Source of the DNA: Candidatus Poribacteria bacterium
Lineage (GTDB): Bacteria; Poribacteria; WGA-4E; WGA-3G
Assembly: GCA_965242965.1 (NCBI GenBank)
Contig: OZ251518.1
Location: forward strand, 672,001 to 736,000
Length of the DNA: 64,000 bases
Direction: 5' to 3'
Numbering within the stretch: position 1 is the stretch's first letter; each line of letters starts with the position of its first letter. The translations under genes were made by a program, and so were the position numbers. Under the pieces are notes generated by a model. The model was given only the letters and a program-made list of their open reading frames with translations. It ran no database searches and was not told the origin of the DNA. Shown here piece after piece: positions 6,707-58,698 of the stretch.

Positions 6707-7465
6707 ATGAAAATGAAACTGTTTCTGTGTGTGCTGTGTCTCGCGTTTTTCGCGGATGGGCTATTGCCCCAAACCGCGCCGGTAGATGAAGCGACACGGC
6801 TCACCCAGGTTGAAATCGCTTTGGAATTCCAGAACAAGCAGCTTGGCAGAATGGAGGGGACGATGGACCGAATTGATGGGCAGATGGATGGTATGCTCAT
6901 GTGGGTAATCGGCTTATTCGTTGGATTCGGCATTGCCGTTTACGCGCTCATCCATCAACTCAGAGCGCAACTCACCGAAATGATGCATACGTTTGGCACC
7001 CACTATGCAGATCTGGTTCTGCGGATGTCACAATTGCAGAGCGATCTGGTGGTGCAAATATCTGAACTGCGGGGCGATGTCAATGGGGTAAAGAGCGATG
7101 TTGCGACGGTGCAGCAGAATCTCACGAAGGTTGAGAGCGATGTCAGTGCCGTGAAATCAGAGTTGCAGGCCGATATCAGTGCCGTGAAATCAGAGTTGCG
7201 GGCCGATGTCAGCGACGTGAAATCAGAGTTGCGGGGCGATATCGGCGACGTGAAAATCAATGTCGGCGGACTCCAAAAGGATGTCGCAATCATCCAGAAG
7301 GATGTCGGCGAACTCAACGAGAAAGTCGATGGCATTGATGCGCACGTGACAGAAGTTGAACGCAGCACCAACGCGCAGCTCACCGACATTCGCGAAACCC
7401 TCGCAAAGCAACAGGAAACCGAAACCGAAACGCCGAAAAAGGAAGCCGATTCCTTGAAAACGTAG
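6707..7465 (+). CDS. Signal peptide + TM + hendecad-repeat coiled-coil protein (DUF1640/MempromCC-like)
   Basis: Signal-like N-terminus, TM MLMWVIGLFVGFGIAVYALI, 11-aa repeats (DVSAVKSELQA) encoded by 33-bp DNA repeats at about 7139-7258. Confidence 0.75.
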   Translation: MKMKLFLCVLCLAFFADGLLPQTAPVDEATRLTQVEIALEFQNKQLGRMEGTMDRIDGQMDGMLMWVIGLFVGFGIAVYALIHQLRAQLTEMMHTFGTHYADLVLRMSQLQSDLVVQISELRGDVNGVKSDVATVQQNLTKVESDVSAVKSELQADISAVKSELRADVSDVKSELRGDIGDVKINVGGLQKDVAIIQKDVGELNEKVDGIDAHVTEVERSTNAQLTDIRETLAKQQETETETPKKEADSLKT

Positions 7466-7519
7466 GGAGAAACTCCCTTGTTTAGAGATGTCTGTAGTTC
7501 GGGCTCAGACGAGCCCGAA

Positions 7520-8680
7520 CTATAGCAGTGAATTGACAACCCCAATCCCGATGCACGAACCCATCTTCTTCATCTCAAACCGCGTGCCGACTTCCATCGC
7601 TAACGGTAAATCAAGCCTCATGGTGACTTGCGCGTCCATGCCCGGTGTGATGATTGAAATATCTGGTGGGAGTCGGAGATGCGTTGGCATGTCAATCCCC
7701 CATAAATGTATTACCAGCCGGTCGTTGTCAATAAGCGGCATGTGCGTGCTGTTCTCCTCGTGTGTTAGGAGATAGACAATCGCCGTAAACGCAGAATGCG
7801 ATTTGATAGTCTTCGGTGTGCAAAGCACCTGTCCCACAGAGAGCCAATCCGGTTCAGCCTCCACGCGCGCTTCATTCTCTTTGATGCCGAGGCACCGCGT
7901 CTTGATTCGTTCCCCTTTGCCGACGACATCGACGGCTTGTCCTACGGCGAGATGCCCTTGGGCAATTTCGCCTCGCGCCGTGACGCTATCGCGCGTCTCT
8001 TCGGTAATCTCATAAATCGGCATGATGAGCGGCAGGTTTGCGCGGTTAATAGGTTCCGGCATGTGCCGATTCATCGCGAAAACCAGATCGACAATTGGCT
8101 TCCACTGCGCCGAGGCAAGTTTGTGGCCTTTGTAAGTTAATGCTTTGCGCGCGTCGCCGACAATGATAGGAGACGTTTCCTCTTCCCATCCGCACTCGCT
8201 TAGCAGTTCACGCATCTCCATCTGACAAATGTCTAGCAGTTCATCGTCTTCCGGAATGCCGCCGGTGTTGAGGAACGGAATCACCGTCGTCAGATGAACG
8301 TGGCTGGCGAGACAGAGCAGTGCTTCAGAGTCCGGCGTGACTCCCTCAACGGCGTTCACCACCCAGAGCGCGCCCTGAATAGCTGGTGAACCGCTCACAA
8401 GCATCTTGACGACATCCTGTTGCGTTTCGCAGTCAATCTGCGTATAAAATTTGCCGCTGGTTTCATAATCAACAGCGCGGTAGGTAATACCGACCCTTTC
8501 ACGAATCGGGTGGCGCATCGGGATTTGTGTATCAAAACTGCCATCGATATCGGTATGAATAGCCCCGATTCTCGCGACAACCTTTGCGATGGCGGCTGTT
8601 AACGTCGTTTTTCCGTGCCCCGGTGCGCCGAGTGTGCAGATAGGCAAGGCGCGGTGCGTGGCGGCTCTTTTCTTGTTCAT
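7520..8680 (-). CDS. Divergent EF-Tu-like protein with degenerate GTPase motifs
   Basis: Colinear with EF-Tu throughout (GHGKTTLTAAI, DDELLDICQMEMRELLS, GQVL, HSAFTAIVYLLTHEE, AMEVGTRF, GIGVV); AAGGAG SD before ATG 8680. Confidence 0.85.
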   Translation of the reverse strand: MNKKRAATHRALPICTLGAPGHGKTTLTAAIAKVVARIGAIHTDIDGSFDTQIPMRHPIRERVGITYRAVDYETSGKFYTQIDCETQQDVVKMLVSGSPAIQGALWVVNAVEGVTPDSEALLCLASHVHLTTVIPFLNTGGIPEDDELLDICQMEMRELLSECGWEEETSPIIVGDARKALTYKGHKLASAQWKPIVDLVFAMNRHMPEPINRANLPLIMPIYEITEETRDSVTARGEIAQGHLAVGQAVDVVGKGERIKTRCLGIKENEARVEAEPDWLSVGQVLCTPKTIKSHSAFTAIVYLLTHEENSTHMPLIDNDRLVIHLWGIDMPTHLRLPPDISIITPGMDAQVTMRLDLPLAMEVGTRFEMKKMGSCIGIGVVNSLL

Positions 8681-8785
8681 CGATTTCTCCTTTTTTCTAT
8701 TTCGCAAGGCATTCGCTGAGGGTTTCTGTTGCGAGCCTGTCTCTCTGCGTAACCTGATATTTTCGGTTTTGGATGCTAATTTATT

Positions 8786-9185
8786 GAGGGTGTTTCATAA
8801 ATCCGTTTGCGCGCTGATAAGCCCCCTTCATCGTAGGGCGAGGGCCTGTCCCTCGCCATGCTTCGCGTACCCCAGACCCTCCCTTCTGTAGGGCAAGAGC
8901 ACCTGCTCTTGACCTGTTTGTGATCAGGCGATCACAAACTACAGACAGGGCGCGATAAGCACCCTCCATCGTAGGGCGAGGGCCTGTCCCTCGCCATGCC
9001 TCGCGCTACGGAAAAACGTCTCTGCAGGTCCGTAGGACCTAAAACGCCCCCGCTTGCCGATGGCCAACGCAGGGGACAGGCCCCCGCGCTACGGAAAAAT
9101 CGAGACCAGGAGGTCTCTCCTACGGTATTGCATCGAGACCAGGAGGTCTCTCCTACCCAAAGAAACGGATTTATGAAACACCCTC
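8786..9185. mobile_element. MITE-like element: 23-bp perfect TIRs, 7-bp TSD, REP cargo
   Basis: GAGGGTGTTTCATAAATCCGTTT ... AAACGGATTTATGAAACACCCTC, flanked on both sides by ATTTATT (8779-8785, 9186-9192). Confidence 0.8.
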
Positions 9186-12743: not shown

Positions 12744-13352
12744 ATGAACCGCAAAATCATTTGCATCGTCATTGCACTCATGGTTTTAAGCCTCGGTGCA
12801 ATCCTTGTCGCAGTTGAACCTGAACTCACAGGCGATGTAAACCGCGACGGTATCGTGAACATTCTCGATTTGGTGGAAGTCGCCTCACAATTCGGAGAGC
12901 AGGGTGAACCCGCCAACACCGTCACAAACGTGGGGCAGTTCCAAAACGATTTAAACGGACTCCCCGTTAACGTCACACTCTCACCACTGGAAAACGCAGA
13001 GGTTGAGACGGTTAGAGCGCGAGACGTACAGCAGAATCATTGGGACTATAACGGACGGTTCGTCCGTTTTACAGGTGTCGTTGACTACGTTAACACGACT
13101 TACCTCGACCCGCTAGACCTCCAATCGGAGGTAGTCTGGAGTCTGCGCCTTGAAGGGTGGCCATGGATTTATGTGTACCTGCTGGATGCGCCGAATATAT
13201 CCATTCTCCCCGAAGCATACCAAACGGGGCACAAATATGAATTCACAGGGTTTTTCATAAGATATGAGAAACACGCAGAATGGAGCAAAGACGGATTCAC
13301 ACAAATACGCGTCTACGCTTTTGAGATTCGGCATCTGGGGGAAGCGGATTGA
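12744..13352 (+). CDS. Secreted protein with dockerin-like/EF-hand motif and possible OB-fold C-terminal domain
   Basis: AAAGGAG SD, signal peptide, GDVNRDGIVNILDLV motif. Confidence 0.8.
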   Translation: MNRKIICIVIALMVLSLGAILVAVEPELTGDVNRDGIVNILDLVEVASQFGEQGEPANTVTNVGQFQNDLNGLPVNVTLSPLENAEVETVRARDVQQNHWDYNGRFVRFTGVVDYVNTTYLDPLDLQSEVVWSLRLEGWPWIYVYLLDAPNISILPEAYQTGHKYEFTGFFIRYEKHAEWSKDGFTQIRVYAFEIRHLGEAD

Positions 13353-13409
13353 TACGAACGCCCGCGCCGCGGATATTCCCGCGGCCGGGTCTTCTTAAAG
13401 AAGGAGATT

Positions 13410-14438
13410 ATGATGTTGAAAAATGCTTTTTTATCTCTGTTTTTCCTACTCGTCAGCGTCCACGCCGCCGTCGGCAACGCAGACCTGAACGCAGACGGAA
13501 AAATCAACATTCAAGATTTAGTCATCATTGCGCAGCATCTCGGCACCGACAACACAGAAGTAGACCAGAACGGGGACGGAGAAATAAATATCCTTGACCT
13601 GGTCCTGGTTGCAGGGCTTTTAGGTGAAACGCCAACAAAACCCGAGACCCCCGAAGGCATGGTGCTTATCCCTGCTGGCACATTCCAAATGGGCAGCGAG
13701 GACGAGGAGGCAGGCGATGACGAACAGCCCGTGCATACCGTCCACTTGGATGCGTTCTATATGGATAAATATGAAGTCACGAACGCGCAGTTCAAGGCAT
13801 TCCTCGACGCAAATCCAGAGTGGGGAAAGGATAACATTGAGGACAGGTATAACATTGAGGACAGGTTCCACAAGGGCTTATACCTTCGTGAATGGACTGA
13901 CAATAACTACCCCGCCGGGAAAGCAGACCATCCGGTGTATCAGGTGAGCTGGTATGCAGCAATGGCGTATACCGAGTGGACAGGCAAGCGGCTGCCGACA
14001 GAGGCGGAATGGGAATATGCCGCACGCGGTGGGCTTGCGGGGAAGAAGTATCCCTGGGGCGATACGATTTCCCCCGCTGATGCGAACTACTGGGACAGTG
14101 GCATCGGCGATACGACACCCGTTGGGCAGTATGCGGCGAACGGGTATGGGTTATATGATATGGCAGGAAACGTGCGGGAATGGTGCCTTGACGTATACGA
14201 TTTCAAGGGTTTATACGCTGTCTCTGAGAACAATCGGAATCCTATCGCCAGTGGGGAGAGCCTCCAAGAACTGCGTGAGAACTTCACAAGTATCCCGGAA
14301 GACTCCTATCGCGTGTTGCGCGGCGGCAGTTGGTTCCAAACGGCACAGTACTTGCGTGTTGCCAGTCGCGAATGGAATAAGCCAACGTACGCGGACGCAG
14401 TCCTCGGTTTTCGTTGCGTGCAGCCAGTTACGCCTTGA
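13410..14438 (+). CDS. Secreted dockerin-like + formylglycine-generating-enzyme (FGE-sulfatase/C-type lectin fold) domain protein
   Basis: DLNADGKINIQDLV and DQNGDGEINILDLV; FQMGS, RLPTEAEWEYAARGG, LYDMAGNVREW, RVLRGGSW, GFRC. Confidence 0.92.
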   Translation: MMLKNAFLSLFFLLVSVHAAVGNADLNADGKINIQDLVIIAQHLGTDNTEVDQNGDGEINILDLVLVAGLLGETPTKPETPEGMVLIPAGTFQMGSEDEEAGDDEQPVHTVHLDAFYMDKYEVTNAQFKAFLDANPEWGKDNIEDRYNIEDRFHKGLYLREWTDNNYPAGKADHPVYQVSWYAAMAYTEWTGKRLPTEAEWEYAARGGLAGKKYPWGDTISPADANYWDSGIGDTTPVGQYAANGYGLYDMAGNVREWCLDVYDFKGLYAVSENNRNPIASGESLQELRENFTSIPEDSYRVLRGGSWFQTAQYLRVASREWNKPTYADAVLGFRCVQPVTP

Positions 14439-21299: not shown

Positions 21300-22760
21300 A
21301 TGTTAACAATTCCCGAGTTGAATAGCCTCCACTACGGCGACAATCTCCACATTTTGCGGCAATGGCCCGATAATTGGGTGGACATCGTCTATGGAGATCC
21401 GCCGTTCAATTCCAAGCAGCAATATAATCAACTTTACGCGCTGGAAGCGGAGGTGGCGAACAAAGGGACGCGCGCCGCGTCGCTGAAGGCGTTTGACGAT
21501 ACATGGCACTGGACTCCCGATGCACAGGCACGTGTTGATGAGCTCACCGGCATGGTTGCCTCGCCGATTGCTAAAGCCATTGGCGGGTTGCACCAGATTC
21601 TCGGCGACTGCGGGATGATGGCTTACGTCAGTTACATGGCGATTCGCTTGATTGAGATAAAGCGCGTCCTCAAGCCGACCGGCACGTTCTATCTCCACTG
21701 CGATGCGACAGCAAGTCATTATCTCAAAATCGCTCTGGATGGGGTTTTCGGTGCTGAGAATTTCCGGAACGAAATTGTGTGGCACTACCACATGGGAAAT
21801 GCCCCAAGGAAAGATTTCCGCCGAAAACATGATACCATTTTTCGGTATTCCAAAACCGCTGATTACAAAGGCGTTGATATGAGGGTACCGAGAAGGATGG
21901 ATGCCTCCCGTTACAATAAGGTGGATGAAAACGGGAGACGCTATCACGAAAACGGCGTTGGGAAAAGGTTCTACATGGATGAGGGAAAAATCCCCGATGA
22001 TGTCTGGACCTACTGTGAGGACAAAAAACTCACACAGTTGAACTCCCGGGCGAAAGAGCGTCTAGGATACGCGACCCAGAAACCCCTCGCCTTGCTTGAT
22101 AGAATTATCAGAGCCTCCTCAAACGCAGGGGATATTGTGTTGGATCCGTTTTGTGGCTGCGGCACTACTGTTGTCGCCGCCGATAACTTGAAGCGCGACT
22201 GGGTTGGCATTGACATTAATCCTGCCGCGCTGGATGTCATCAAAACACAGCGGTTCCCGGGTCGAGACATCCCAACCTACGGTGTGCCTGCAGACTTAGC
22301 GAGTGCGCGGCGGCTCGCCGGTGAACATCGGCGGCATTTTGAGATATGGGCTGTGAACCTCATCCCCGGTCTTGCGCCGAACGAGCGCGGCGGCGCAGAT
22401 GGCGGCATTGATGGCATCGGGAACACGCTGGAAACGCCCGATGGCGACTATACGAAAATTGTCCTCGGTCAGGTGAAGAGTGGGAAGTTCTCGCTCAGCC
22501 AGCTGCGCGATTTCTTGCATGTCGTGCAACGTGAAAATGCCGTGATGGGTGTCTATATCACCTTAGAGGATGTCACTTCATCGGCGGCGCAGAATGAGGT
22601 GGCGAAACTCGGTAACGTGCAGATAGGGAATCACGTTTTCCCGCGCGTGCAACTTTACTCGGTTGAGGGTTGGTTTCATGAGCGGCTGCCGCAGTTGCCG
22701 GATATGATTAATCCGTATACGGGCAAACCGCTGCAGCGTGCGTTGCCGTTAAGTTTTTAG
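21300..22760 (+). CDS. N6-adenine/N4-cytosine DNA methyltransferase (beta class) fused to a C-terminal Mrr-like nuclease-fold domain, copy 1
   Basis: DPPF before DPFCGCGTT; ATQKP; C-terminal DGGIDG...QVKSG. Confidence 0.9.
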   Translation: MLTIPELNSLHYGDNLHILRQWPDNWVDIVYGDPPFNSKQQYNQLYALEAEVANKGTRAASLKAFDDTWHWTPDAQARVDELTGMVASPIAKAIGGLHQILGDCGMMAYVSYMAIRLIEIKRVLKPTGTFYLHCDATASHYLKIALDGVFGAENFRNEIVWHYHMGNAPRKDFRRKHDTIFRYSKTADYKGVDMRVPRRMDASRYNKVDENGRRYHENGVGKRFYMDEGKIPDDVWTYCEDKKLTQLNSRAKERLGYATQKPLALLDRIIRASSNAGDIVLDPFCGCGTTVVAADNLKRDWVGIDINPAALDVIKTQRFPGRDIPTYGVPADLASARRLAGEHRRHFEIWAVNLIPGLAPNERGGADGGIDGIGNTLETPDGDYTKIVLGQVKSGKFSLSQLRDFLHVVQRENAVMGVYITLEDVTSSAAQNEVAKLGNVQIGNHVFPRVQLYSVEGWFHERLPQLPDMINPYTGKPLQRALPLSF

Positions 22761-22792: not shown

Positions 22793-24256
22793 GTGGTATC
22801 ACGAATTCCGGCGTTGAATAGCCTCCACTACGGCGACAATCTCCACATCTTGCGGCAATGGCCCGATAATTGGGTGGATATTGTCTACGGAGATCCGCCG
22901 TTTAATTCCAAGCAGCAATATAATCAACTTTACGCGCTGGAGGCGGAGATGGCGAACAAAGGCACGCGCGCCGCGTCGCTGAAAGCGTTTGACGATACCT
23001 GGCACTGGACTCCCGATGCGCAGATGCGCGTTGATGAACTCACCGGTATGGTTGCTGCGCCGATTGCTAAAGCCATCGGCGGGTTGCATCAGATCCTCGG
23101 CGACTGCGGGATGATGGCTTATGTCAGCTACATGGCACTCCGTTTGCTTGAACTTCATCGCGTTCTCAAACCTACCGGCAGTATCTACATCCACTGCGAT
23201 GCGACGGCGAGTCATTACCTCAAGTTGTTGATGGACGGCATTTTCGGTCCGAAGAACTTCAGAAATGAGATTGTGTGGTGTTACCCGCCCGGTGGACAAG
23301 GACCCAAGTTGGCGTTCCATCGCAAGCACGACATTATCTTGTTTTACGGGATGGCTGAAAAAGAGGGCGTTTTTCACCGTCCCTATACCGCGCTGACAGA
23401 AGCGGCGGTGAAAAAGTTTAACAAGAGAGACGAAGCAGGCAGAGCCTACAAAGAATATCCGGGCGGTAGAAGTTACCTTGATGCCTCCCCCGGGCGCGCT
23501 ATTCCGAGTTGGTGGAGTGATATTCCATCCCTGGGGCAGACGCAGTCGAAAGAGCGTCTCGGCTATGGCACCCAGAAGCCGCTCGCGCTGCTTGAGCGTA
23601 TCATCGGTGCATCGTCAAACGCAGGGGATATTGTGTTGGATCCGTTCTGTGGTTGCGGTACTACTGTTGTCGCCGCTGATACCCTGAAGCGGAACTGGGT
23701 TGGCATTGACATTAATCCCGCCGCGCTGGATGTCATCAAAACGCAGAGGTTTCCGGGCAGAAACATTCCTACCTACGGTGTGCCTGCAGATTTGGCGAGT
23801 GCGGCGCGGCTGGCCGGTGAGCATCGTCGGCACTTTGAGATATGGGCTGTGAACCTTATCCCGGGTCTTGCGCCGAACGAGCGCGGCGGCGCAGATGGCG
23901 GCATTGATGGTATCGGGAATACACTAGAAACGCCCGATGGTGACTTTACGAAAATTGTCCTCGGTCAGGTGAAGAGTGGGAAGTTCTCGCTGAGCCAACT
24001 ACGCGATTTCTTGCATGTCGTGCAACGTGAAAATGCCGTGATGGGTGTCTATATCACTTTAGGGGATGTCACTTCCTCGGCGGCGCGGAATGAGGTGGCG
24101 AAACTCGGTAACGTGCAGATAGGGAACCACGTTTTCCCGCGCGTGCAGCTTTACTCGGTTGAGGGTTGGTTTCATGAGCGGCTGCCGCAGTTGTCGGATA
24201 TGATTAATCCGTATACGGGGAAGCCGCTGCAGCGCGCGCTGCCGTTAAATTTTTAG
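22793..24256 (+). CDS. DNA methyltransferase + Mrr-like domain, copy 2
   Basis: Same motifs as copy 1; AGGAG SD before GTG; different central segment. Confidence 0.9.
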   Translation: MVSRIPALNSLHYGDNLHILRQWPDNWVDIVYGDPPFNSKQQYNQLYALEAEMANKGTRAASLKAFDDTWHWTPDAQMRVDELTGMVAAPIAKAIGGLHQILGDCGMMAYVSYMALRLLELHRVLKPTGSIYIHCDATASHYLKLLMDGIFGPKNFRNEIVWCYPPGGQGPKLAFHRKHDIILFYGMAEKEGVFHRPYTALTEAAVKKFNKRDEAGRAYKEYPGGRSYLDASPGRAIPSWWSDIPSLGQTQSKERLGYGTQKPLALLERIIGASSNAGDIVLDPFCGCGTTVVAADTLKRNWVGIDINPAALDVIKTQRFPGRNIPTYGVPADLASAARLAGEHRRHFEIWAVNLIPGLAPNERGGADGGIDGIGNTLETPDGDFTKIVLGQVKSGKFSLSQLRDFLHVVQRENAVMGVYITLGDVTSSAARNEVAKLGNVQIGNHVFPRVQLYSVEGWFHERLPQLSDMINPYTGKPLQRALPLNF

Positions 24257-37026: not shown

Positions 37027-37797
37027 CTACGGAGAAGAGAGCTCCAATGCCTCGCGAACCGCTTGGCGAACCTCGGTGGCGATTTTTACTGCATGCTGTG
37101 CATTGGTGGCGGTTGCGGATTCGCCAGGGGACCGGAAATCCACTGCGTGCGTCGTAAATGCCGCAAAATCCGCATACCATGCGCGCCACGCAGGAAGCGT
37201 CGGCACGATTAAATCCAGCAATTCTTCTAGACTGTGTGTCCGCTGCACCGGAAGGTTCGCTTCTTGCAGCCACGCCTTCAGGAACTTCTCAATACACTGC
37301 TGCGCGTGAAAACAGATGGTATTATAGAAGTTTCGTGTTGCGCTGTGCTGGAGTTCCTTTACCGCGGCGTAATCCTCCTCAGCTCGCTCTATATACTCCA
37401 AAGTCAACGGATTCATCGGGTTTCCTACTTCCTTCTCGCGCTGTTCATCGGGCGTTTCCAATGCTTTTTTGGAAAAACCACCGGCATCATAAAGCACGTC
37501 GCCTTTTTCAAGAATTTCTCGGAGAAACCAATCATTGTGCGCGACACGATAGGCAATCTCTGCCGGCGACCGGACGAGTAAATCCGTGCGAAACCGATGC
37601 GGGATGCATCGCCGGATTTCTACCGCCTTGTCCCGTTGCGCCGATGCGGGAATCGGCATCACAACGAGTAGATCTACATCGGATGCTTCCGTTGGCGGGT
37701 TGCCATACGCATACGAACCAAAGAGAATAATTTGGAGTGGTGCGAATTCGCGCACGATGTCATCACAAGTTGCTTGAATCTCTTTTCGGGAAATCAT
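37027..37797 (-). CDS. Fused MNT nucleotidyltransferase-HEPN domain protein
   Basis: LFGSYAYG...SDVDLLV; ICFHAQQCIEKFLKA, THSL. Confidence 0.88.
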   Translation of the reverse strand: MISRKEIQATCDDIVREFAPLQIILFGSYAYGNPPTEASDVDLLVVMPIPASAQRDKAVEIRRCIPHRFRTDLLVRSPAEIAYRVAHNDWFLREILEKGDVLYDAGGFSKKALETPDEQREKEVGNPMNPLTLEYIERAEEDYAAVKELQHSATRNFYNTICFHAQQCIEKFLKAWLQEANLPVQRTHSLEELLDLIVPTLPAWRAWYADFAAFTTHAVDFRSPGESATATNAQHAVKIATEVRQAVREALELSSP

Positions 37798-41208: not shown

Positions 41209-42603
41209 ATGCCAATTGTCATACCGCGCCTCGTCGTAGAGGTGTTTCAACATACAAACTTCCGAGGCAAAATGGGGTATGTCGTTGAGCCCGTGCAGCA
41301 CACTCGGCATATCGGGTTTCAGGACAATATCTCATCGCTTCGCGTTTACAAAGGTCCGAACTTTTCGTCAAATCCGCACTACAAGGTTCTCCTTTATCAG
41401 CATACAAACTACCGTGGGCGAAAGTTGGCACTCGGGCCCGGATTTTATCCAAATTTGCACGATACTGCCTACAATTTTGGGGACAGAATTTCGTCCATTA
41501 ATTTCGGTTCCGCGCTAGAGGTAGTTGGGCCGGAGTGGGGCACGATTCCGCTAATTGTGGATTGTTACGAGCATGTTGAGTTCCGAGGCAGAAAAATCAC
41601 TATCCTGCGTGATATAGCGAATTTGCGAGATGCGCAGGGGCGTTCGTGGTTTGAAGATCGGATTTCGTCTATCCGCATTTTCAAAGGACCTGATTTTCCA
41701 TCGGATGGTGCTGAGGTTGTTTTCTACGAACATCCCGATTTTGAAGGCGCGAGCCTCCCTGTCCGCATGGAGCCGATGGAGTATAAGAAAGAATTGCCGA
41801 ACCTCCATCTGCTGCCACAAAGTTTCGGGGATTCCATCTCCGCCGTTAAGATTGAGGGTTGGGCATCGTCCGGTGAATTCACGGAAATGGTGTTTGAAGA
41901 CGAATTCATTGGGAATCGGATGCGTCCCGAATGGCGATGGGAGGACCCGAAGGGCGGCGGTGCCTGGGCGGAACGCCAAGGGTATTTACAAATGCGCACC
42001 GAACCAGGGCAAGACCTCTGGCACGGACCCAACGGCAGAGGCGGCGATATGAGTGCCCCGCGGTTGTTGATGGAAGTTGAAGGCGATTTTGCGATTGAGA
42101 CGCGGATGCCCATCACGCCGCAACAGCGCGAACATGGCGGGTTGCTTGTCTGGAAGCATGCCAACCAATTCCTCCGATTGGAGAAAACCTCGGGACCGCA
42201 CGCCTTCCGCGGCGATGTCCGGTTTGAAAGGCATGTCAACCGTGGTTATCAGCTGCGAGGACGCGGCGGCGGACTTAAAAACGCGCGTGAGCTCTTCCTC
42301 CGGATAGAGCGACGCGGGAATCAGTTTTCCTCCTTCGCTAGTGACAATGGAATTCAGTGGCGGAGTTGCGGACAGACGAATGTCGGGATGGGCCATCGGG
42401 TGCGTGTCGGTTTGCATGCGTTGTGTCCGGGAAATATTCCGCCTACGTTGACACGATTTGACTTTTTCCGTCTCTTTAAGCGGCGGAGTGAGGCGGCCGA
42501 GTATCGTCCGATTATTGCGCAGCCTGTCGGCCAGCAATCTGACGAGGAGCGCGAGCGTCTCGTCGCCGACCGGCGCGAACGCGCAATGCGAGATCTTGTA
42601 TAA
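41209..42603 (+). CDS. Beta/gamma-crystallin repeat + ConA-like (DUF1349-type) domain protein
   Basis: Four Greek-key motifs (F/Y)xHxx(F/Y)xG...D.ISS; C-terminal SAPRLL..VEGDFAIET, GGLLVW. Confidence 0.82.
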   Translation: MPIVIPRLVVEVFQHTNFRGKMGYVVEPVQHTRHIGFQDNISSLRVYKGPNFSSNPHYKVLLYQHTNYRGRKLALGPGFYPNLHDTAYNFGDRISSINFGSALEVVGPEWGTIPLIVDCYEHVEFRGRKITILRDIANLRDAQGRSWFEDRISSIRIFKGPDFPSDGAEVVFYEHPDFEGASLPVRMEPMEYKKELPNLHLLPQSFGDSISAVKIEGWASSGEFTEMVFEDEFIGNRMRPEWRWEDPKGGGAWAERQGYLQMRTEPGQDLWHGPNGRGGDMSAPRLLMEVEGDFAIETRMPITPQQREHGGLLVWKHANQFLRLEKTSGPHAFRGDVRFERHVNRGYQLRGRGGGLKNARELFLRIERRGNQFSSFASDNGIQWRSCGQTNVGMGHRVRVGLHALCPGNIPPTLTRFDFFRLFKRRSEAAEYRPIIAQPVGQQSDEERERLVADRRERAMRDLV

Positions 42604-46087: not shown

Positions 46088-46606
46088 CTATTCGTTGATG
46101 AGCGATTCGCGCGCATGTTTCGTTTTTCTTATCGCGTCGGCAATATTGCCTTCATAACTGCATCGCGTTGTATAAATCAAGGATTCTTGCCCGCGAAAAA
46201 TCACTCCGGCCCGTTTACTTCGTTTTCTGCGCCGCGTCTTGGGAATTCTCCCACCGTGGACAAGGAGTGGTATACAAATCGTTTTGACATTCCTTGGCAC
46301 TATGCGAGCGGCAATGCGCGCACCTTCTTGCAGCTGCTTGATGGCTTCCGACGCGTCAACTTGTCCACGCTTGAGTTCCATTGGGACGGTAACGAGACTT
46401 TCCTGTTCCGTGTCAATGGAAAAGAGGATAAAGTCGCATTGCGCTTTCACGGCTCTGTCTTTTGGAAACGCGAGATCAACGTCTAACATCACCCGCTCGC
46501 GCGGGAGGTTCGCCAAAGAGACGCGACATCCTTCTCGTGTGTAAGACTTGGCTTCCCTATCGCCTATCCACCGGCGAATGTCGTCAAGCACCTCATGTAG
46601 ATTCAC
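46088..46606 (-). CDS. Putative PD-(D/E)XK nuclease-fold protein coupled to the upstream ATPase
   Basis: CDFIL...ELKRG....A.KQL; likely GTG start at 46606 overlapping the ATPase end. Confidence 0.65.
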   Translation of the reverse strand: MNLHEVLDDIRRWIGDREAKSYTREGCRVSLANLPRERVMLDVDLAFPKDRAVKAQCDFILFSIDTEQESLVTVPMELKRGQVDASEAIKQLQEGARIAARIVPRNVKTICIPLLVHGGRIPKTRRRKRSKRAGVIFRGQESLIYTTRCSYEGNIADAIRKTKHARESLINE

Positions 46607-47801
46607 TTGCACTACCACCTTCCTGCTTTTCGACGTGGGTTTGGAGAGCCACCGCACGGTTATATTGAGTTTCGGAAACGTCTTCATATTCTTCCGGATA
46701 GATGCCGCCTCTCACTTCAAAGGGCAGTTCTGTCACTGCGCCACACCGTCGGAACCGCCAAACGCCTACCTCCTCTGGCAGCAGCCACGTTTCGATTTTT
46801 TCCTCTTTTTCGTCTAGCATTCCTTCCAGCATCAGGGTGCTGATTTCTTCGACGAGCCAATCGCTGTGGGTTGTGACGAGCACTTTCACGCCAGCGCGAA
46901 CTAACCGGCCAAGCGTTAACGCGAGGTTCACTTGTGCACCGGGATGCAGGTGCGCCTCCGGTTCCTCAATGATGAGGAAATCACCCGGGTGAACGATGCT
47001 CCGGAGAAACATGACTAACGGCGCGAGTTCGGCTACCACGGAAGAGGCATGCCTTAGCGCGAGTTCGGTTTTCGCACCGTACGGACGGTAGCGCACCTCC
47101 GGATACCCACACGCCGAGGGACTCACGTGTAAATGGCCGGAAAGCACCTCTGCTTCCAATCTTTTTGCAAGATACCGCATGTTGCCATTTTGCGTCTTGT
47201 CCTCCTGATAGCCGCGGATGTGCTGCAGAAAGGCTGCGGGGATGCATGATAGGAACGGCATCTCTAGCAGGGGTTCATCCTTCATATAGGGGGCGTGTTC
47301 TCTCAATGAATTGGCAATGAGCCGCTGTTGCTGCATCAGCCCACTGCGAGCCGCCGGGAGGTAGTACCGATTTCCTGCATGCCAACTGGCAGCGGAGCCG
47401 TTGTCGGTTTCTGAACGGAGTGTCCACGCTGCATCGGCGGCTGTCACGTGGATACCCCAGCCATCAGCGGCACCATTGCGCACTTTTAGTGAGAGTGACA
47501 TCTCGTCCGGATGTTCTCCTGTCACTCGTTGAAGTGCCGAAATCGTTTCCAAATCGAAGCAATTTCTGAGTTCCCTCTCTAAGTCAGTATAGACGATGTC
47601 TTCAGCGGCTTTTGGTGCGCTGCCTGCGAAAACACCGTGCAACGCATAAACGAGCGTCGCGAAATAGGTTTTACCGGTGTTGCTCGGGCCGAGGAATACG
47701 GTAAGTGGCCGTAAGTCGACTGTGCCTTCGGGAATCGGACCGAAGTTGCGGACAGCAATTTCCACTTTCGGTTGCGGTGCGGTGTCATTAAGGTTGCTCA
47801 T
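46593..47801 (-). CDS. ABC-type (AAA_15/AAA_21-like) ATPase
   Basis: VRNFGPI, GPSNTGKT, LPAARSG, IIEEPEAHLHP, VTTHS. Confidence 0.88.
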   Translation of the reverse strand: MSNLNDTAPQPKVEIAVRNFGPIPEGTVDLRPLTVFLGPSNTGKTYFATLVYALHGVFAGSAPKAAEDIVYTDLERELRNCFDLETISALQRVTGEHPDEMSLSLKVRNGAADGWGIHVTAADAAWTLRSETDNGSAASWHAGNRYYLPAARSGLMQQQRLIANSLREHAPYMKDEPLLEMPFLSCIPAAFLQHIRGYQEDKTQNGNMRYLAKRLEAEVLSGHLHVSPSACGYPEVRYRPYGAKTELALRHASSVVAELAPLVMFLRSIVHPGDFLIIEEPEAHLHPGAQVNLALTLGRLVRAGVKVLVTTHSDWLVEEISTLMLEGMLDEKEEKIETWLLPEEVGVWRFRRCGAVTELPFEVRGGIYPEEYEDVSETQYNRAVALQTHVEKQEGGSASEST

Positions 47802-53545: not shown

Positions 53546-55156
53546 TTACCGGACACCGAGTGCCGAGGGACGTTCTTGCACGACAGGAATCACATAACTC
53601 CGAATCGTCAGCCCATCCAATTCCTCTGTTTCGACACGCGGCACCGGCGTTTGACGATGGTCGAACACGACGTAATATCCCTGCTGCATGCCTTCCGCTT
53701 GGAGATAGACGGCGAGTTGCTGCTTGCCGGCTTGATGTGATTTCTCGCCTTGCCAAATTTTGGTTTCAACGATATGCTTCTGCCCGGCGTGGAAAATCAC
53801 CAGGTCTGCCCGGCCGCGCCCGGTTTGCACTTCCAGCAGCATGTTGCCGCGCACCTGCCTTACAAACTGATCGAGATAGGCGAACAGCAGAGACTGCCCT
53901 ATGTATTCTTGGGGTGTTTGCGGCACCTGGAGTATACGAAACCCTGCGCGTGCGATGAAGTCGCGGAAGTTATCTAGCAGCCCAGCCATGTCAATTCCAC
54001 CAGCAGGCGTGAGGTAATCGTAATAACCGTTGCCGGTATCCTGCGGATAATATTCTGCCTCTAGTCCGTTAATCGTCGGTTTGAAGGTTTGCAGGATACG
54101 GTATAAATAGATGGGATTGGCGATCTCGCACTGCCGGTTCGCGCCACGTTTGATAACCCCGTAGGTGGCAAGTTCGCTGATGTCCTCATCGTCTAGATTG
54201 AAGTCTTGGCTTCCATCGTCCGAGGTGATGCGCATTAGCACGCGTTGAAAGCGCGGGTTCCGACGAACATTGGTAGTGAGGTGCGTGATATTGACGTTCC
54301 GTTCGGTCAGGATTTCCTTGTGTGCCTCCAAAAAGTGCGCCATGCCGATCGTCTCGGCTTTTGGAATGTCCATCTCTTCGGTGAGTATCTGCGCCATACG
54401 GTTGACGAGGAACGGCTGTCCGCCTGTCTGTTTATGCAGATTTTCAACCACTTCTGGCGCGAATGCTTGCCCCACTTCATCGGTATATTGTCCGAACAGT
54501 TCATGCACTTGTGTTAAGGTAAAGTTGGGTAGACTGAAGTCGTCTTGGATATTAAACGGCGAAACAGACCAGTCGTAGTTCAACTGCGACACACTCTTCA
54601 CACCGGTAATGCCGACGCTATAGGGGCAGCGGGGCAGCTCTTCATCATCGGTGAGGTAGATGCGGCGGAGTGTGTAGAGAAAATCGCTTAGTGCCGCGGG
54701 CGGAATGCCGTCAAACTCGTCGATGACGATGACAACCCGTTGTTCTGGTAACAATCCCGCGAGGTGCCGAAAGAACCTTCCCATTGAGAAGTGATCGGTG
54801 AGGGTTGTGCTTTCTAGAAAACGCGCGAGGGCATCCGGCAGAACCTGCCCGCGCCGGCGGAATACCTTGCGGATTTCCTCGTGAATATCTTCATAAAGAT
54901 AGTGGTAGAAATCTGCCAGTGACGCGTTGCGAAACACTTGGAAATCGAGTTGGATAGGCAAATAGTCGGGTGCCTCCGCTGTCAGTCGCTGGAAAGCCCA
55001 GTGAAAAAAGGTGGTTTTGCCTGTCTGCCGCGGCGCGAAAAGCACGATGTATTTTCCCTGTTTCACGCGGTTGATGAAATCGGCGAGTTCTGTCTCGCGG
55101 GGGACGACGTAGTGTTTGTCAGGATAGACGCGTCCTTGCGTCCAAAAATTTCTCAT
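53546..55156 (-). CDS. AAA-like ATPase with C-terminal PD-(D/E)XK-type domain
   Basis: APRQTGKTT, VIDEFD, SPFNI, TGGQPFLVN, GRADL...VETK....QL..Y. Confidence 0.87.
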   Translation of the reverse strand: MRNFWTQGRVYPDKHYVVPRETELADFINRVKQGKYIVLFAPRQTGKTTFFHWAFQRLTAEAPDYLPIQLDFQVFRNASLADFYHYLYEDIHEEIRKVFRRRGQVLPDALARFLESTTLTDHFSMGRFFRHLAGLLPEQRVVIVIDEFDGIPPAALSDFLYTLRRIYLTDDEELPRCPYSVGITGVKSVSQLNYDWSVSPFNIQDDFSLPNFTLTQVHELFGQYTDEVGQAFAPEVVENLHKQTGGQPFLVNRMAQILTEEMDIPKAETIGMAHFLEAHKEILTERNVNITHLTTNVRRNPRFQRVLMRITSDDGSQDFNLDDEDISELATYGVIKRGANRQCEIANPIYLYRILQTFKPTINGLEAEYYPQDTGNGYYDYLTPAGGIDMAGLLDNFRDFIARAGFRILQVPQTPQEYIGQSLLFAYLDQFVRQVRGNMLLEVQTGRGRADLVIFHAGQKHIVETKIWQGEKSHQAGKQQLAVYLQAEGMQQGYYVVFDHRQTPVPRVETEELDGLTIRSYVIPVVQERPSALGVR

Positions 55157-55704: not shown

Positions 55705-56193
55705 TCAATCAGGAGTCATAGTACTGCCAGAGTTTCCCTCCTGTAACCATGTATATGGATTTTCAACGCGCACGTGGAGATGTTCACTAAGACGTTTCGC
55801 GCGTTTGAGCATGCTGTCGTCTGTCGTCAGAAGGACCGCTGCATCTGCACTCTCCGCGCAGGCAATATGCAAGGCATCAAACCACTTAAAACCGAGGGCT
55901 TCTAACTGAGTGGCGCGTGCAGTTTCCGTTTCGCCAATAAGAACCATTTGCTGCGCTAGATTAAATGTGGCAGATATCTCATCGCGTTCTGTCAAATGAG
56001 GGTTCTCATCAACTTCATTGACTAAAACCTCACTGATAATCCAATGCAGTTGTCCTGTTGAAAAATAGTCAAGGATTTCTTCAACGGCCTCGGTTTCAGC
56101 GCGCACCCGGTCTTGCGTCTGGTCGTCATAGGGGCGGCCTAGACAACAGGTATCCAGATAGATTTTCTGATAGGGGTGGAACTGCATTTGCAC
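55705..56193 (-). CDS. PIN-domain (VapC-like) toxin
   Basis: IYLDTCC..RPYDD, DALHIACAE, LLTTDD, ENP. Confidence 0.9.
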   Translation of the reverse strand: MQMQFHPYQKIYLDTCCLGRPYDDQTQDRVRAETEAVEEILDYFSTGQLHWIISEVLVNEVDENPHLTERDEISATFNLAQQMVLIGETETARATQLEALGFKWFDALHIACAESADAAVLLTTDDSMLKRAKRLSEHLHVRVENPYTWLQEGNSGSTMTPD

Positions 56194-57903: not shown

Positions 57904-58698
57904 ATGGTTTCCGCAAAAGCGATTCAAGAAACTTGTAATGACATCATCCGTGAATTCGCACCGCAACAAGTTATCCTCTTCGGTTCTTACGCGTATGGCA
58001 CACCGACAGAAGACTCCGATGTCGATCTGTTTGTCGTGATGACAGGCATGAAATCAAACGCGCGCGAGGAAGCATGGGAAATGAAAAAACGCCTCCCTGA
58101 GCGGTTCCGTCTCGATTTACACGTGCGCTCACCGGAAGAGTTGGCGTATCGCGTCTCGCATAACGACTGGTTTCTGCGCGAGATTCTCGAAAAAGGCGAT
58201 GTGCTTTATGAAAATGGACAAACCTCCTCGGGCGCGAAGGCTTATCCCGCGCCCGGTCGGTTGGAGGCTTTGGTGCCGATTTGGCAGGAGGCAGGTGCGA
58301 TGAACCCGTTGACACTTGAATGGGTAGAGTTGGCTGAGGCCGATTATGGTTCGGTGAAGTTGCATCTTGAGCATGCATTCAAACCCCCGTTCTATAATAT
58401 CATTTGTTTCCACGCGCAGCAGTGTATCGAAAAATACCTGAAGGCGTGGTTACAGGAAGCGAACCTCCCGACACCGCGCACGCACGAATTGAATGAGTTA
58501 TTGGATTTGTGCGTGCCGACGCGCCCGGCGTGGGAAGCGTGGCGCAGTGATTTTTCGGCGTTTGATAAATACGCTGTCGATGCGCGTTATCCCGGTTATA
58601 TCGCGACGGAAGCGGATGCTGAGCATGCAGTGGGCATCTGCAACGAGGTGCGTCAGACAGTTCGCGACATGCTGGCACTCGGCGAAGAGGCGGACTGA
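57904..58698 (+). CDS. Fused MNT-HEPN protein (paralog of 37027-37797)
   Basis: LFGSYAYG...SDVDL; ICFHAQQCIEKYLKA, RTHEL, ARYPG. Confidence 0.88.
   Translation: MVSAKAIQETCNDIIREFAPQQVILFGSYAYGTPTEDSDVDLFVVMTGMKSNAREEAWEMKKRLPERFRLDLHVRSPEELAYRVSHNDWFLREILEKGDVLYENGQTSSGAKAYPAPGRLEALVPIWQEAGAMNPLTLEWVELAEADYGSVKLHLEHAFKPPFYNIICFHAQQCIEKYLKAWLQEANLPTPRTHELNELLDLCVPTRPAWEAWRSDFSAFDKYAVDARYPGYIATEADAEHAVGICNEVRQTVRDMLALGEEAD

Follow-up and report, generated by a model that had tools for sequence, protein, structure and literature searches.

The 64,000-nt stretch analysed here (the window; positions 672,001 to 736,000 of contig OZ251518.1, assembly GCA_965242965.1, from a Candidatus Poribacteria bacterium) carries on its minus strand a gene for a 386-residue protein, P0001, that resembles elongation factor Tu (EF-Tu). 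EF-Tu is among the most conserved and best-studied of all proteins, and the Poribacteria are uncultured sponge symbionts. An earlier note on this DNA had described the gene as an uninterrupted open reading frame (ORF) with a good Shine-Dalgarno sequence, encoding a retained but non-catalytic EF-Tu mimic. The frame is indeed intact, with a GGAG upstream of its start (Table 1). The ORF listing also permits a longer frame of 395 aa from a TTG at 8707; we prefer the ATG at 8680 because it fits the lengths of the orthologues better, 127 of 230 full-length family members being exactly 386 aa long. In composition (GC 0.539; GC at third codon positions 0.61) and codon usage (a relative synonymous codon usage distance of 0.38, against 0.19-0.63 for 30 window genes) the gene is ordinary for the window, and nothing suggests that it is other than native or that it was recently imported.

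Table 1. Features of the EF-Tu-like gene and its immediate surroundings, in window coordinates.
Feature	Position	Strand	Basis
CDS of the EF-Tu-like protein (P0001)	7520..8680	-	386 codons, TAG stop at 7520-7522; full-length EF-Tu homology
Shine-Dalgarno AAGGAG	8687..8692	-	GGAG at 8687-8690, 6 nt from ATG at 8680; read from sequence
G domain, residues 12-205	8066..8647	-	Pfam GTP_EFTU 12-184; AlphaFold2 model
G1 / Walker A GAPGHGKT, residues 18-25	8606..8629	-	Gly18, Gly23, Lys24, Thr25 kept; His19, Val20, Asp21 replaced
G2-like RVGITYR, residues 62-68	8477..8497	-	register against canonical RGITI ambiguous
G3 remnant DCETQ, residues 83-87	8420..8434	-	Asp kept; Gly83 to Thr, His84 to Gln
G4 remnant NTGG, residues 138-141	8258..8269	-	Asn kept; Lys and Asp lost
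Helix D EDDELLDICQMEMRELLSE, acidic face conserved	8195..8251	-	E144 23/23, E152 23/23, D142 22/23, E155 21/23 representatives
G5 remnant GDAR, residues 175-178	8147..8158	-	Ser173 to Asp, family signature
Domain 2, residues 216-290, including family-specific hairpin VGQAVDVVGKGERIKTR (7895-7945)	7811..8035	-	AlphaFold2 model, conservation, entropy
Junction IKEN, 14 residues of the canonical aminoacyl-tRNA 3'-end loop missing	7874..7885	-	alignments; segment 19-75 residues across the family
Domain 3, residues 291-386, with altered T-stem patch STHMPLIDNDRL (7715-7750) and KKMG (7559-7570)	7523..7810	-	Pfam GTP_EFTU_D3, conservation
Inverted repeat, 15 nt, 93% complementary, 4-nt loop	7492..7525 (arms 7492-7506, 7511-7525)	.	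between convergent genes, overlaps stop codon

Homology to EF-Tu spans almost the entire protein. A phmmer search of Protein Data Bank sequences returned 60 matches, nearly all of them EF-Tu (best 6gfu_A, E = 4.8e-57), and aligned residues 8-385 of P0001 with residues 9-392 of E. coli EF-Tu chains (E = 4.9e-51), while BLASTP against E. coli K-12 TufA gave 121/390 identities (31%, E = 7e-53). With GTP_EFTU (residues 12-184, 59.1 bits against a gathering score of 26.5) and GTP_EFTU_D3 (residues 291-385, 46.3 bits against 27) both above gathering score, P0001 is by the standards of Pfam an EF1-family translational GTPase; GTP_EFTU_D2 gave no match at E ≤ 1. It nevertheless falls below every curated bacterial EF-Tu cut-off in NCBIfam (203.2 against 522.4 bits for TIGR00485, 211.5 against 452 for PRK12736, 209.5 against 479 for PRK12735 and 208.6 against 449 for PRK00049), and is an EF-Tu homologue rather than EF-Tu proper. 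The SelB model TIGR00475 scored 18.2 bits against a cut-off of 242.25 and the EF-1-alpha model 38 bits, and the 21 NCBIfam families matching P0001 at E ≤ 1 include no CysN model, which we looked for as a sign of CysN/NodQ. Domain 3 runs to the last residue, 386, leaving no SelB-like C-terminal winged-helix extension.

An AlphaFold2 model of P0001 built from a 62-sequence alignment reached a mean predicted local distance difference test score (pLDDT) of 92.5 and a predicted template-modelling (TM) score of 0.90, with values below 50 only at residues 1-8, and superimposed on solved EF-Tu structures with TM scores of 0.83-0.90 over about 390 columns. The closest structures are GDP-type, open forms, from which we draw no conclusion on state. 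A model of the diverged relative P0122 (pLDDT 91.6) has low confidence only at residues 1-7 and in a domain-2 insert at 271-275. These predicted structures show the three-domain architecture and fold of EF-Tu (G domain, beta-barrel domains 2 and 3) to be kept, and the colinearity with all three EF-Tu domains claimed from the sequence is confirmed by phmmer, BLASTP and the model, despite the unmatched Pfam profile for domain 2.

P0001 belongs to a sizeable family. Searching 5.8 billion clustered proteins with it (E ≤ 1e-3) returned 423 homologous 90%-identity clusters; the best 120 of these are 69-97% identical to P0001, and 118 of the 120 are 385-401 aa long. The same search from P0122, a 52% identical relative, returned 334 clusters forming a continuum of subtypes. 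Type A, which includes the window's protein, is marked by the motifs GAxGHGKT / GVGITYR / DCETH / LNT; type B, to which P0122 belongs, by a length of 392-405 aa and GGVEHGKT / QTYVSYK / DGLSH / LNKAE / GDAE; type C by 386 aa and GGAQAGKT / GVGLDYR / DCVSH / LNQTE; and a 407-aa group makes up a further subtype. Among the matches listed, the 13 source names that bear an organism are all Candidatus Poribacteria. Annotations of members at source read 'elongation factor Tu', 'GTP-binding protein' or 'hypothetical protein', and given this mixture the paralogue could be mistaken for an EF-Tu marker in phylogenomics. One type A orthologue, P0005 (413 aa, on a contig of 5011778 bp), has two insertions, after helix D and in the variable domain-2 loop.

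The boundary between this family and ordinary EF-Tu is sharp. In a HMMER scan of 1.84 billion 50%-identity representatives only P0122 (425 bits) and P0123 (272 bits) fell between the two, the next score being 172 bits. When a hidden Markov model (HMM) of the family was set against a canonical one on 149 further representatives, five preferred the family model, namely three fragments, P0123 (by 31 bits) and P0209 (by 8 bits). Several metagenome singletons (P0128, P0132, P0133, P0135, P0145, P0150, P0213 and others) carry other degenerate G motifs, such as GNPGNGKS / DCSSH / NKIN. P0128, P0132, P0213 and others of these odd EF-Tu-like singletons were considered as family members and rejected; they score better with the canonical HMM and are therefore separate oddities. 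A genome-contig search with HGKTTLTAA, a pattern common to every EF-Tu, found at least 80 loci, of which those listed are all ordinary tuf (29-35% identity) and none is from Poribacteria. No family member occurs among 19 matches in phage records, the listed ones being ordinary EF-Tu at 31-32% identity, or among 89 matches in plasmid records, all below 60% identity (eight listed at 31-32%, five annotated tuf). A structure search of BFVD found no phage look-alike (best TM score 0.44, giant-virus EF1-like proteins), and a search of the ESM Atlas returned generic EF-Tu clusters only. Among the matches listed, none of 15 megabase contigs with non-type-A members matches in length any of about 37 with type A, which is only a hint that the types are lineage-specific orthologues, one copy per genome, rather than co-resident paralogues.

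To place the family, maximum-likelihood inference was performed on 49 rows, 26 of them from the family. All 26 form one clade with support of 100/100, set on a long stem away from canonical EF-Tu, and P0123 is their sister sequence, again with support of 100/100; a quick tree of 70 rows agrees. On a quick tree of the same 49 rows the median path within the family is 1.01, compared with 0.64 for 22 canonical EF-Tu drawn from many phyla and 3.59 from one group to the other. We gauged conservation on 23 family representatives sharing less than 80% pairwise identity, with 72 canonical EF-Tu for comparison (71 of them from the contig search), and type A entropy on 158 sequences with 91 representatives. 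Among the 23 representatives 128 columns are at least 90% conserved, 50 of which differ from the canonical majority, so that the family, which evolves faster than canonical EF-Tu, is nonetheless clearly constrained. These roughly 50 new family-specific positions cluster in helix F and the linker, in the domain-2 hairpin and in the former T-stem patch of domain 3. The least variable blocks of type A are the P-loop (residues 21-30, entropy 0.07), the domain-2 hairpin DVVGKGERIK (251-260, 0.07) and the domain-3 segment STHMPLIDND (311-320, 0.15). Of 179 columns invariant in at least 95% of the canonical set, by contrast, the family keeps 57: 11 of 19 in the P-loop and helix A, 4 of 18 in switch II, 18 of 40 in domain 3 and none of 11 in switch I.

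That the gene is retained, as the earlier note had it, is thus well supported by the 423 clusters, the near-uniform lengths among the best 120 and the 128 conserved columns, and the check it proposed, orthologues and a phylogeny, yielded full-length orthologues in a single clade apart from canonical EF-Tu. A decaying pseudogene, or a functionless relic of a tuf duplication, might have been expected from the degenerate GTPase motifs and from the faster evolution, a median path of 1.01 within what is by source names a single phylum against 0.64 for the 22 canonical proteins. This explanation is close to refuted: the frame is intact and preceded by a Shine-Dalgarno sequence, full-length orthologues number in the hundreds with a common length in over half of the 230 counted, 50 of the 128 conserved columns are new and the P-loop is nearly invariant, and on the 5011778-bp contig the EF-Tu-like protein is 81% identical to the window's where the neighbouring coiled-coil protein is only 50% identical.

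The earlier note's pseudo-GTPase label came from the G motifs, and the G1 to G5 strings it quoted are all present in P0001 (Table 1), with G1 still a complete Walker A motif (GxxxxGKT). Its description of G2 as shifted depends on the aligner: phmmer and BLASTP set GIT on GIT and place a two-residue gap after it, whereas MAFFT, run on 302 sequences, aligns the segment ungapped with Thr66 on E. coli Asn63. Residue counts were taken over 230 full-length members and are given in E. coli numbering. Gly18 (230), Gly23 (230), Lys24 (229), Thr25 (229), Asp80 (229) and Asn135 (230) are kept practically throughout, while His19 is kept in none, Asp21 in 5, Gly83 in 2 (Thr in 153, Ser in 65), Lys136 in 58, Asp138 in 19 and the G5 residue Ser173 in none, being Asp in 226; an intact NKxD occurs in two members. 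Asp21, Gly83, His84, Lys136, Asp138 and Ser173 are present together in 0/230 family members and in 71/72 canonical EF-Tu. His84, lost in P0001, is kept in 182/230 members.

His84 and Asp21 are described as the two residues required for ribosome-stimulated GTPase activity, Asp21 being conserved in translational GTPases except eIF2-gamma, which the ribosome does not activate, and an H84Q EF-Tu is described as retaining some activity (PMC5084732). In P0001 Asp21, Gly83 and His84 are all replaced, which is the sequence hallmark of a pseudoGTPase. Class i of that group is defined by the absence of nucleotide binding; in type A the P-loop has an entropy of 0.07, and Lys24, Thr25 and Asp80 are each kept in 229/230 family members, a pattern that by sequence leans against this class. 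The claim of a non-catalytic pseudo-GTPase therefore stands as far as the replaced catalytic residues go, and inactivity itself is plausible but unproven, given the near-invariant P-loop and the 182 members with His84. With a P-loop that ranks among the best-conserved segments of the protein, and with His84 persisting in those members, nucleotide binding, possibly of a guanine nucleotide, is probably retained, and some hydrolysis is conceivable.

The G4 and G5 motifs form a graded series. The sister sequence P0123 has NKID and GSAR, the members P0392 and P0330 combine NKxD with GD(V/A), and nearly all others are without the G4 Asp, a pattern which indicates that Ser173 changed to Asp first, at the base of the family, and that Asp138 was lost later and more than once. 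The G5 Ser of Ras-type G domains adjoins the G4 Asp. An Asp at G5, close to the site of the G4 Asp, could therefore take over base recognition, which leaves the pseudo-GTPase label hypothetical: the guanine-binding carboxylate may have moved from G4 to G5 rather than vanished. That needed residues may have 'migrated' is a point raised in a review of pseudoenzymes (PMC10211241).

The features that serve aminoacyl-tRNA and ribosomal activation in EF-Tu are largely gone. The loop for the aminoacyl-tRNA 3' end (E. coli 257-281) keeps 0/15 canonical-invariant columns, and the domain-2 segment 262-280 has 19 residues against 33 in canonical proteins, which refines the earlier estimate of roughly 15 missing residues to 14; in the P0122 model this region is the only internal low-confidence stretch. 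His66 has become Ala or Ser, Glu215 Arg, Tyr or His, Phe218 Ile, Thr or Val, Thr228 Arg or Tyr and Glu259 Lys or Arg, and Asn273 is deleted, all positions that we take to line the aminoacyl and A76 pocket. At Glu378 and Gly379, presumably T-stem contacts, the family has Lys in 230/230 (K372 of P0001) and Met in 229/230 (M373), and Arg318 is also replaced; several of these pocket and T-stem changes go from acidic to basic or aromatic. His19 and Asp21, lost from G1, are on our assumption the residues that face the sarcin-ricin loop. By their conservation pattern, members of the family are shown to be without the residues for a ribosome-activated GTPase, without any of the conserved switch I positions and without the aminoacyl-end pocket, and the view that P0001 is not a working EF-Tu is supported by its own loss of Asp21, Gly83 and His84 and by the 0/15 columns of the 3'-end loop.

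The same data bear on whether P0001 could be an elongation factor specialised for some unusual tRNA or aminoacyl-tRNA, in the way of SelB, MM1309 or the EF-Tu variants of nematode mitochondria. None of the three domains has been lost, the face that once bound tRNA is strongly constrained, though with different residues, and EF-Tu paralogues with altered tRNA specificity are on record (PMC4329189, PMC1636415). Ribosomal delivery, on the other hand, needs a ribosome-activated GTPase, and Asp21 and Gly83 are lost (PMC5084732). A loop of variable length stands in place of the aminoacyl/A76 pocket, Lys and Met have replaced the T-stem residues Glu378 and Gly379 in practically every member, the SelB model scores far below its cut-off, and a tRNA scan of the 64-kb window found no gene. 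We consider such a factor highly improbable.

Helix D contrasts with these losses. Its acidic face is fully conserved, at least to the degree seen in canonical EF-Tu (Table 1), and we take this face to bind the C-terminal domain of bL12 as well as EF-Ts. Its contact with EF-Ts is seen in the M. tuberculosis complex (PMC9529903), from which we took ten EF-Ts-contacting residues of EF-Tu and converted them to E. coli numbering. Two of the ten are firmly kept among the 23 representatives, Asp142 in 22 and Glu152 in 23; Pro111 is Val in 22, and Asp354 is kept in 0, Asp141 in 1, Asn355 in 5, Glu117 in 6, Ala85 in 8, Gln124 in 11 and His84 in 16. Lys89 is kept in 22/23. Thr382, which we take to be the phosphorylation site of Doc, is kept in only 3/23.

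These surfaces, and the helix D residues Glu144, Glu152 and Glu155 above all, would accord with a ribosome-associated, hydrolysis-deficient factor that docks through helix D and the bL12 stalk and serves as escort or stabiliser for some protein, or for an RNA that is not aminoacyl-tRNA, much as EF-Tu(GDP) occupies hibernating ribosomes together with Balon. In its open form EF-Tu(GDP) holds Balon by the same domain III residues that bind tRNA, and it also touches 16S helix h5 and the C-terminal domain of bL12 (PMC10901736). In the Poribacteria family the domain-3 patch is changed but highly conserved (entropy 0.15 at residues 311-320), and Lys89 persists. This role is doubtful in our estimate: no Balon, eRF1 or Pelota-type gene was found among the 68 of 69 window ORFs scanned, Asp21 and His19, the two residues taken to face the sarcin-ricin loop, are missing from nearly every member, and the region beside the deleted domain-2 loop varies from 19 to 75 residues.

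The earlier note had favoured a mimic, for example a decoy for toxins or antibiotics aimed at EF-Tu. On this explanation the protein would act as a sponge for such toxins, phage factors or antibiotics, or would sequester EF-Ts. EF-Tu does serve as target or cofactor in defence, being cleaved by Lit and type IV Thoeris and acting as scaffold for Avs7 (PMC12803255); the window holds defence-type genes (HEPN/nucleotidyltransferase, PIN, AbiEii-like AAA and two methylase-nuclease fusions), and Asp142 and Glu152 of the EF-Ts-contacting helix D (contacts from PMC9529903) are kept. A mimic should keep the surfaces of its target, yet only 57/179 canonical-invariant columns survive, 8/10 EF-Ts contacts are changed or variable, Thr382 persists in only 3/23 representatives and switch I keeps no canonical-invariant column. 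PADLOC gave no match for P0001 and only weak coiled-coil matches for the coiled-coil neighbour, the 19 phage and 89 plasmid matches contain no family member, and the gene's neighbours are the housekeeping genes hisA and rfaE domain II. Mimicry, decoy activity and EF-Ts binding are thus poorly supported by the retained surfaces, and we judge the explanation improbable.

Taken together, these observations lead us to give about an even chance to the reading that the gene encodes a neofunctionalised, nucleotide-binding paralogue of EF-Tu that serves neither in elongation nor as a GTPase activated by the ribosome, in a family seen only in Candidatus Poribacteria. The word paralogue assumes a canonical tuf in the same genomes, as the universality of EF-Tu implies. 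P0001 has kept the fold and the phosphate- and Mg-binding residues, the latter under the strongest constraint in the protein. According to this proposal it would still bind a nucleotide, possibly a guanine nucleotide; G5 Ser173 turned into Asp at the root of the family and the G4 Asp disappeared afterwards, so that the carboxylate may have been relocated; aminoacyl-tRNA would no longer be delivered; the protein would work as a binding module that is loaded with nucleotide and hydrolyses it slowly or not at all; and the face that formerly bound tRNA, now remodelled, would hold a different ligand, protein or RNA.

Several points weigh against this reading. What is said of function in P0001 is drawn wholly from sequence conservation. 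His84 is lost in P0001 but present in 182/230 members, and position 66, in the G2-like stretch, is Thr or Ser in 212/230, so that many members could still hydrolyse GTP by an altered route. One branch (P0149/P0413/P0415) lacks a GK[ST] P-loop altogether, and nucleotide binding may accordingly be dispensable, unless these copies are broken. The full conservation of the EF-Ts-contacting acidic face of helix D would fit a role linked to the ribosome or to EF-Ts over a wholly new ligand. As to the branch itself, the three proteins form one cluster of seven members on contigs no longer than 3.5 kb; domains 2 and 3 are of the family type, G4 reads IDQP and the N-termini differ between members, which are either a further-degenerated form or broken or misassembled copies.

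A more far-reaching version of the proposal, which we put forward as unlikely but worth stating, is that this is the first bacterial pseudo- or rewired GTPase derived from a translational GTPase, with the carboxylate moved from G4 to G5, ribosomal activation gone and the tRNA face holding another protein or RNA. The ligand could, for instance, be a factor that mimics tRNA on stalled or hibernating ribosomes, to which the conserved bL12-binding helix D would give access. Our literature search found no description of a degenerate Poribacteria EF-Tu paralogue or of a bacterial pseudoGTPase derived from a translational GTPase; most subscription journals lay outside the search, so this is not proof of absence. 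Retained across the phylum with its phosphate site kept and its catalytic residues, switch I and pocket lost, the family is a natural experiment in the re-use of a translational GTPase, and with Asp arising at G5 in place of Ser before the G4 Asp was lost, it is a testable case of a relocated base-recognition residue. It could also bring to light a new partner of the Poribacteria translation machinery.

Around the gene, one flank holds hisA (TIGR00007, 269 bits) and a 252-aa coiled-coil protein (6707-7465, +), and the other consists of 548 nt of intergenic DNA followed by a divergent gene for rfaE domain II (193 bits against a cut-off of 181.5). With these neighbours, and with no ribosomal protein or other elongation factor gene among the 68 of 69 window ORFs (of at least 80 aa) scanned against Pfam, the gene lies outside any ribosomal operon in this window, as had been claimed. 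The inverted repeat at its 3' end (Table 1) looks like a terminator hairpin; a simple terminator scan did not list it, as it has no T run. An Rfam scan of the window gave no match, and a promoter scan gave two sites against 2.1 expected, none of them upstream of the EF-Tu-like gene. In the 548-nt intergenic region a 16-nt palindrome, GAGACCAGGAGGTCTC, occurs twice (9102-9117 and 9135-9150), 17 nt apart, beside several further short inverted repeats; the two copies could be operator or repeat elements.

The coiled-coil neighbour is a very fast-evolving protein and was ruled out as a co-conserved partner by its 12 homologous clusters against 423 for the EF-Tu-like protein. The two genes occur together on contigs of 5011778, 251558 and 43218 bp, which is little informative. 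On the 43218-bp contig the EF-Tu-like protein shares a 90%-identity cluster with P0002, whose identity to the window's protein is 97%, and the coiled-coil homologue there is only 56% identical to that of the window.

Elsewhere in the window, tandem genes at 21300-22760 and 22793-24256 (+), 81% identical (394/489) and differing mainly in a central stretch, each encode an N6/N4 DNA methylase fused to a C-terminal Mrr/NA-iREase-type nuclease. Two proteins combine a nucleotidyltransferase with HEPN (37027-37797, -, and 57904-58698, +), and other defence-type genes encode an AbiEii-like AAA protein (46593-47801), a PIN protein (55705-56193) and an AAA_35/AAA_22 ATPase (53546-55156). There are also two dockerin-bearing proteins, one with an FGE-sulfatase domain (12744-14438, +, and 41209-42603, +), and a beta/gamma-crystallin protein with DUF1349.

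Compared with known systems, P0001 shares with canonical EF-Tu (tuf, TIGR00485) the fold (TM 0.83-0.90), colinearity over residues 8-385, the Walker A Gly, Lys and Thr, Asp80, Asn135, Lys89 and the acidic face of helix D. It differs in its 31% identity and in the loss of Asp21, Gly83, His84, the Lys and Asp of NKxD, the G5 Ser, switch I, the tRNA pocket and 14 residues of domain 2, and its gene lies outside a str/tuf operon context, with codon usage ordinary for the window. Among EF-Tu-like proteins, the only distinct subfamily named in a 2015 survey of translational GTPases is actEF-Tu, or EF-Tu3, of the Actinomycetales (Atkinson 2015, PMC4342817). Like the Poribacteria gene it represents a second, diverged gene of EF-Tu type that has evaded gene conversion and occurs in one lineage only; unlike it, and here the comparison is by description only, actEF-Tu is a condition-specific, antibiotic-resistant translation factor, whereas the Poribacteria family is without the catalytic and pocket residues (PMC4342817).

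SelB and the SelB/EF-Tu/aIF2-gamma-like protein MM1309 are likewise paralogues within the EF1 family that kept the fold and changed the cargo (PMC4329189). MM1309, however, binds guanosine 5'-(beta,gamma-imido)triphosphate (GMPPNP), GDP and Cys-tRNACys (PMC4329189), whereas the Poribacteria family has no aminoacyl pocket, and SelB is set apart by the score of P0001 against its model (18.2 bits against 242.25) and by the C-terminal extension that P0001 lacks. In eIF2-gamma, too, Asp21 is absent and there is no activation by the ribosome, but the other G motifs are kept, and the protein binds Met-tRNAi, is activated by another protein and is an archaeal and eukaryotic component of a heterotrimer (PMC5084732). 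The class i pseudoGTPase AAGAB has a GTPase fold with degenerate G motifs and binds proteins through a non-classical interface (PMC12490416); P0001 shares the fold and the degeneration. Class i proteins are, however, incompetent for GTP binding and hydrolysis (PMC12490416), whereas the Poribacteria family keeps a near-invariant P-loop and Mg site and is thus more likely to bind nucleotide. Finally, the complexes of EF-Tu(GDP) with Balon (PMC10901736) and of EF-Tu with Avs7 (PMC12803255), homologues of neither of which were found near the gene in the window ORF scans or by PADLOC, are alike in that EF-Tu plays a structural part by way of its domains II and III and delivers no tRNA. In both of those systems it is the housekeeping EF-Tu that is recruited, whereas the Poribacteria have a separate, diverged gene.

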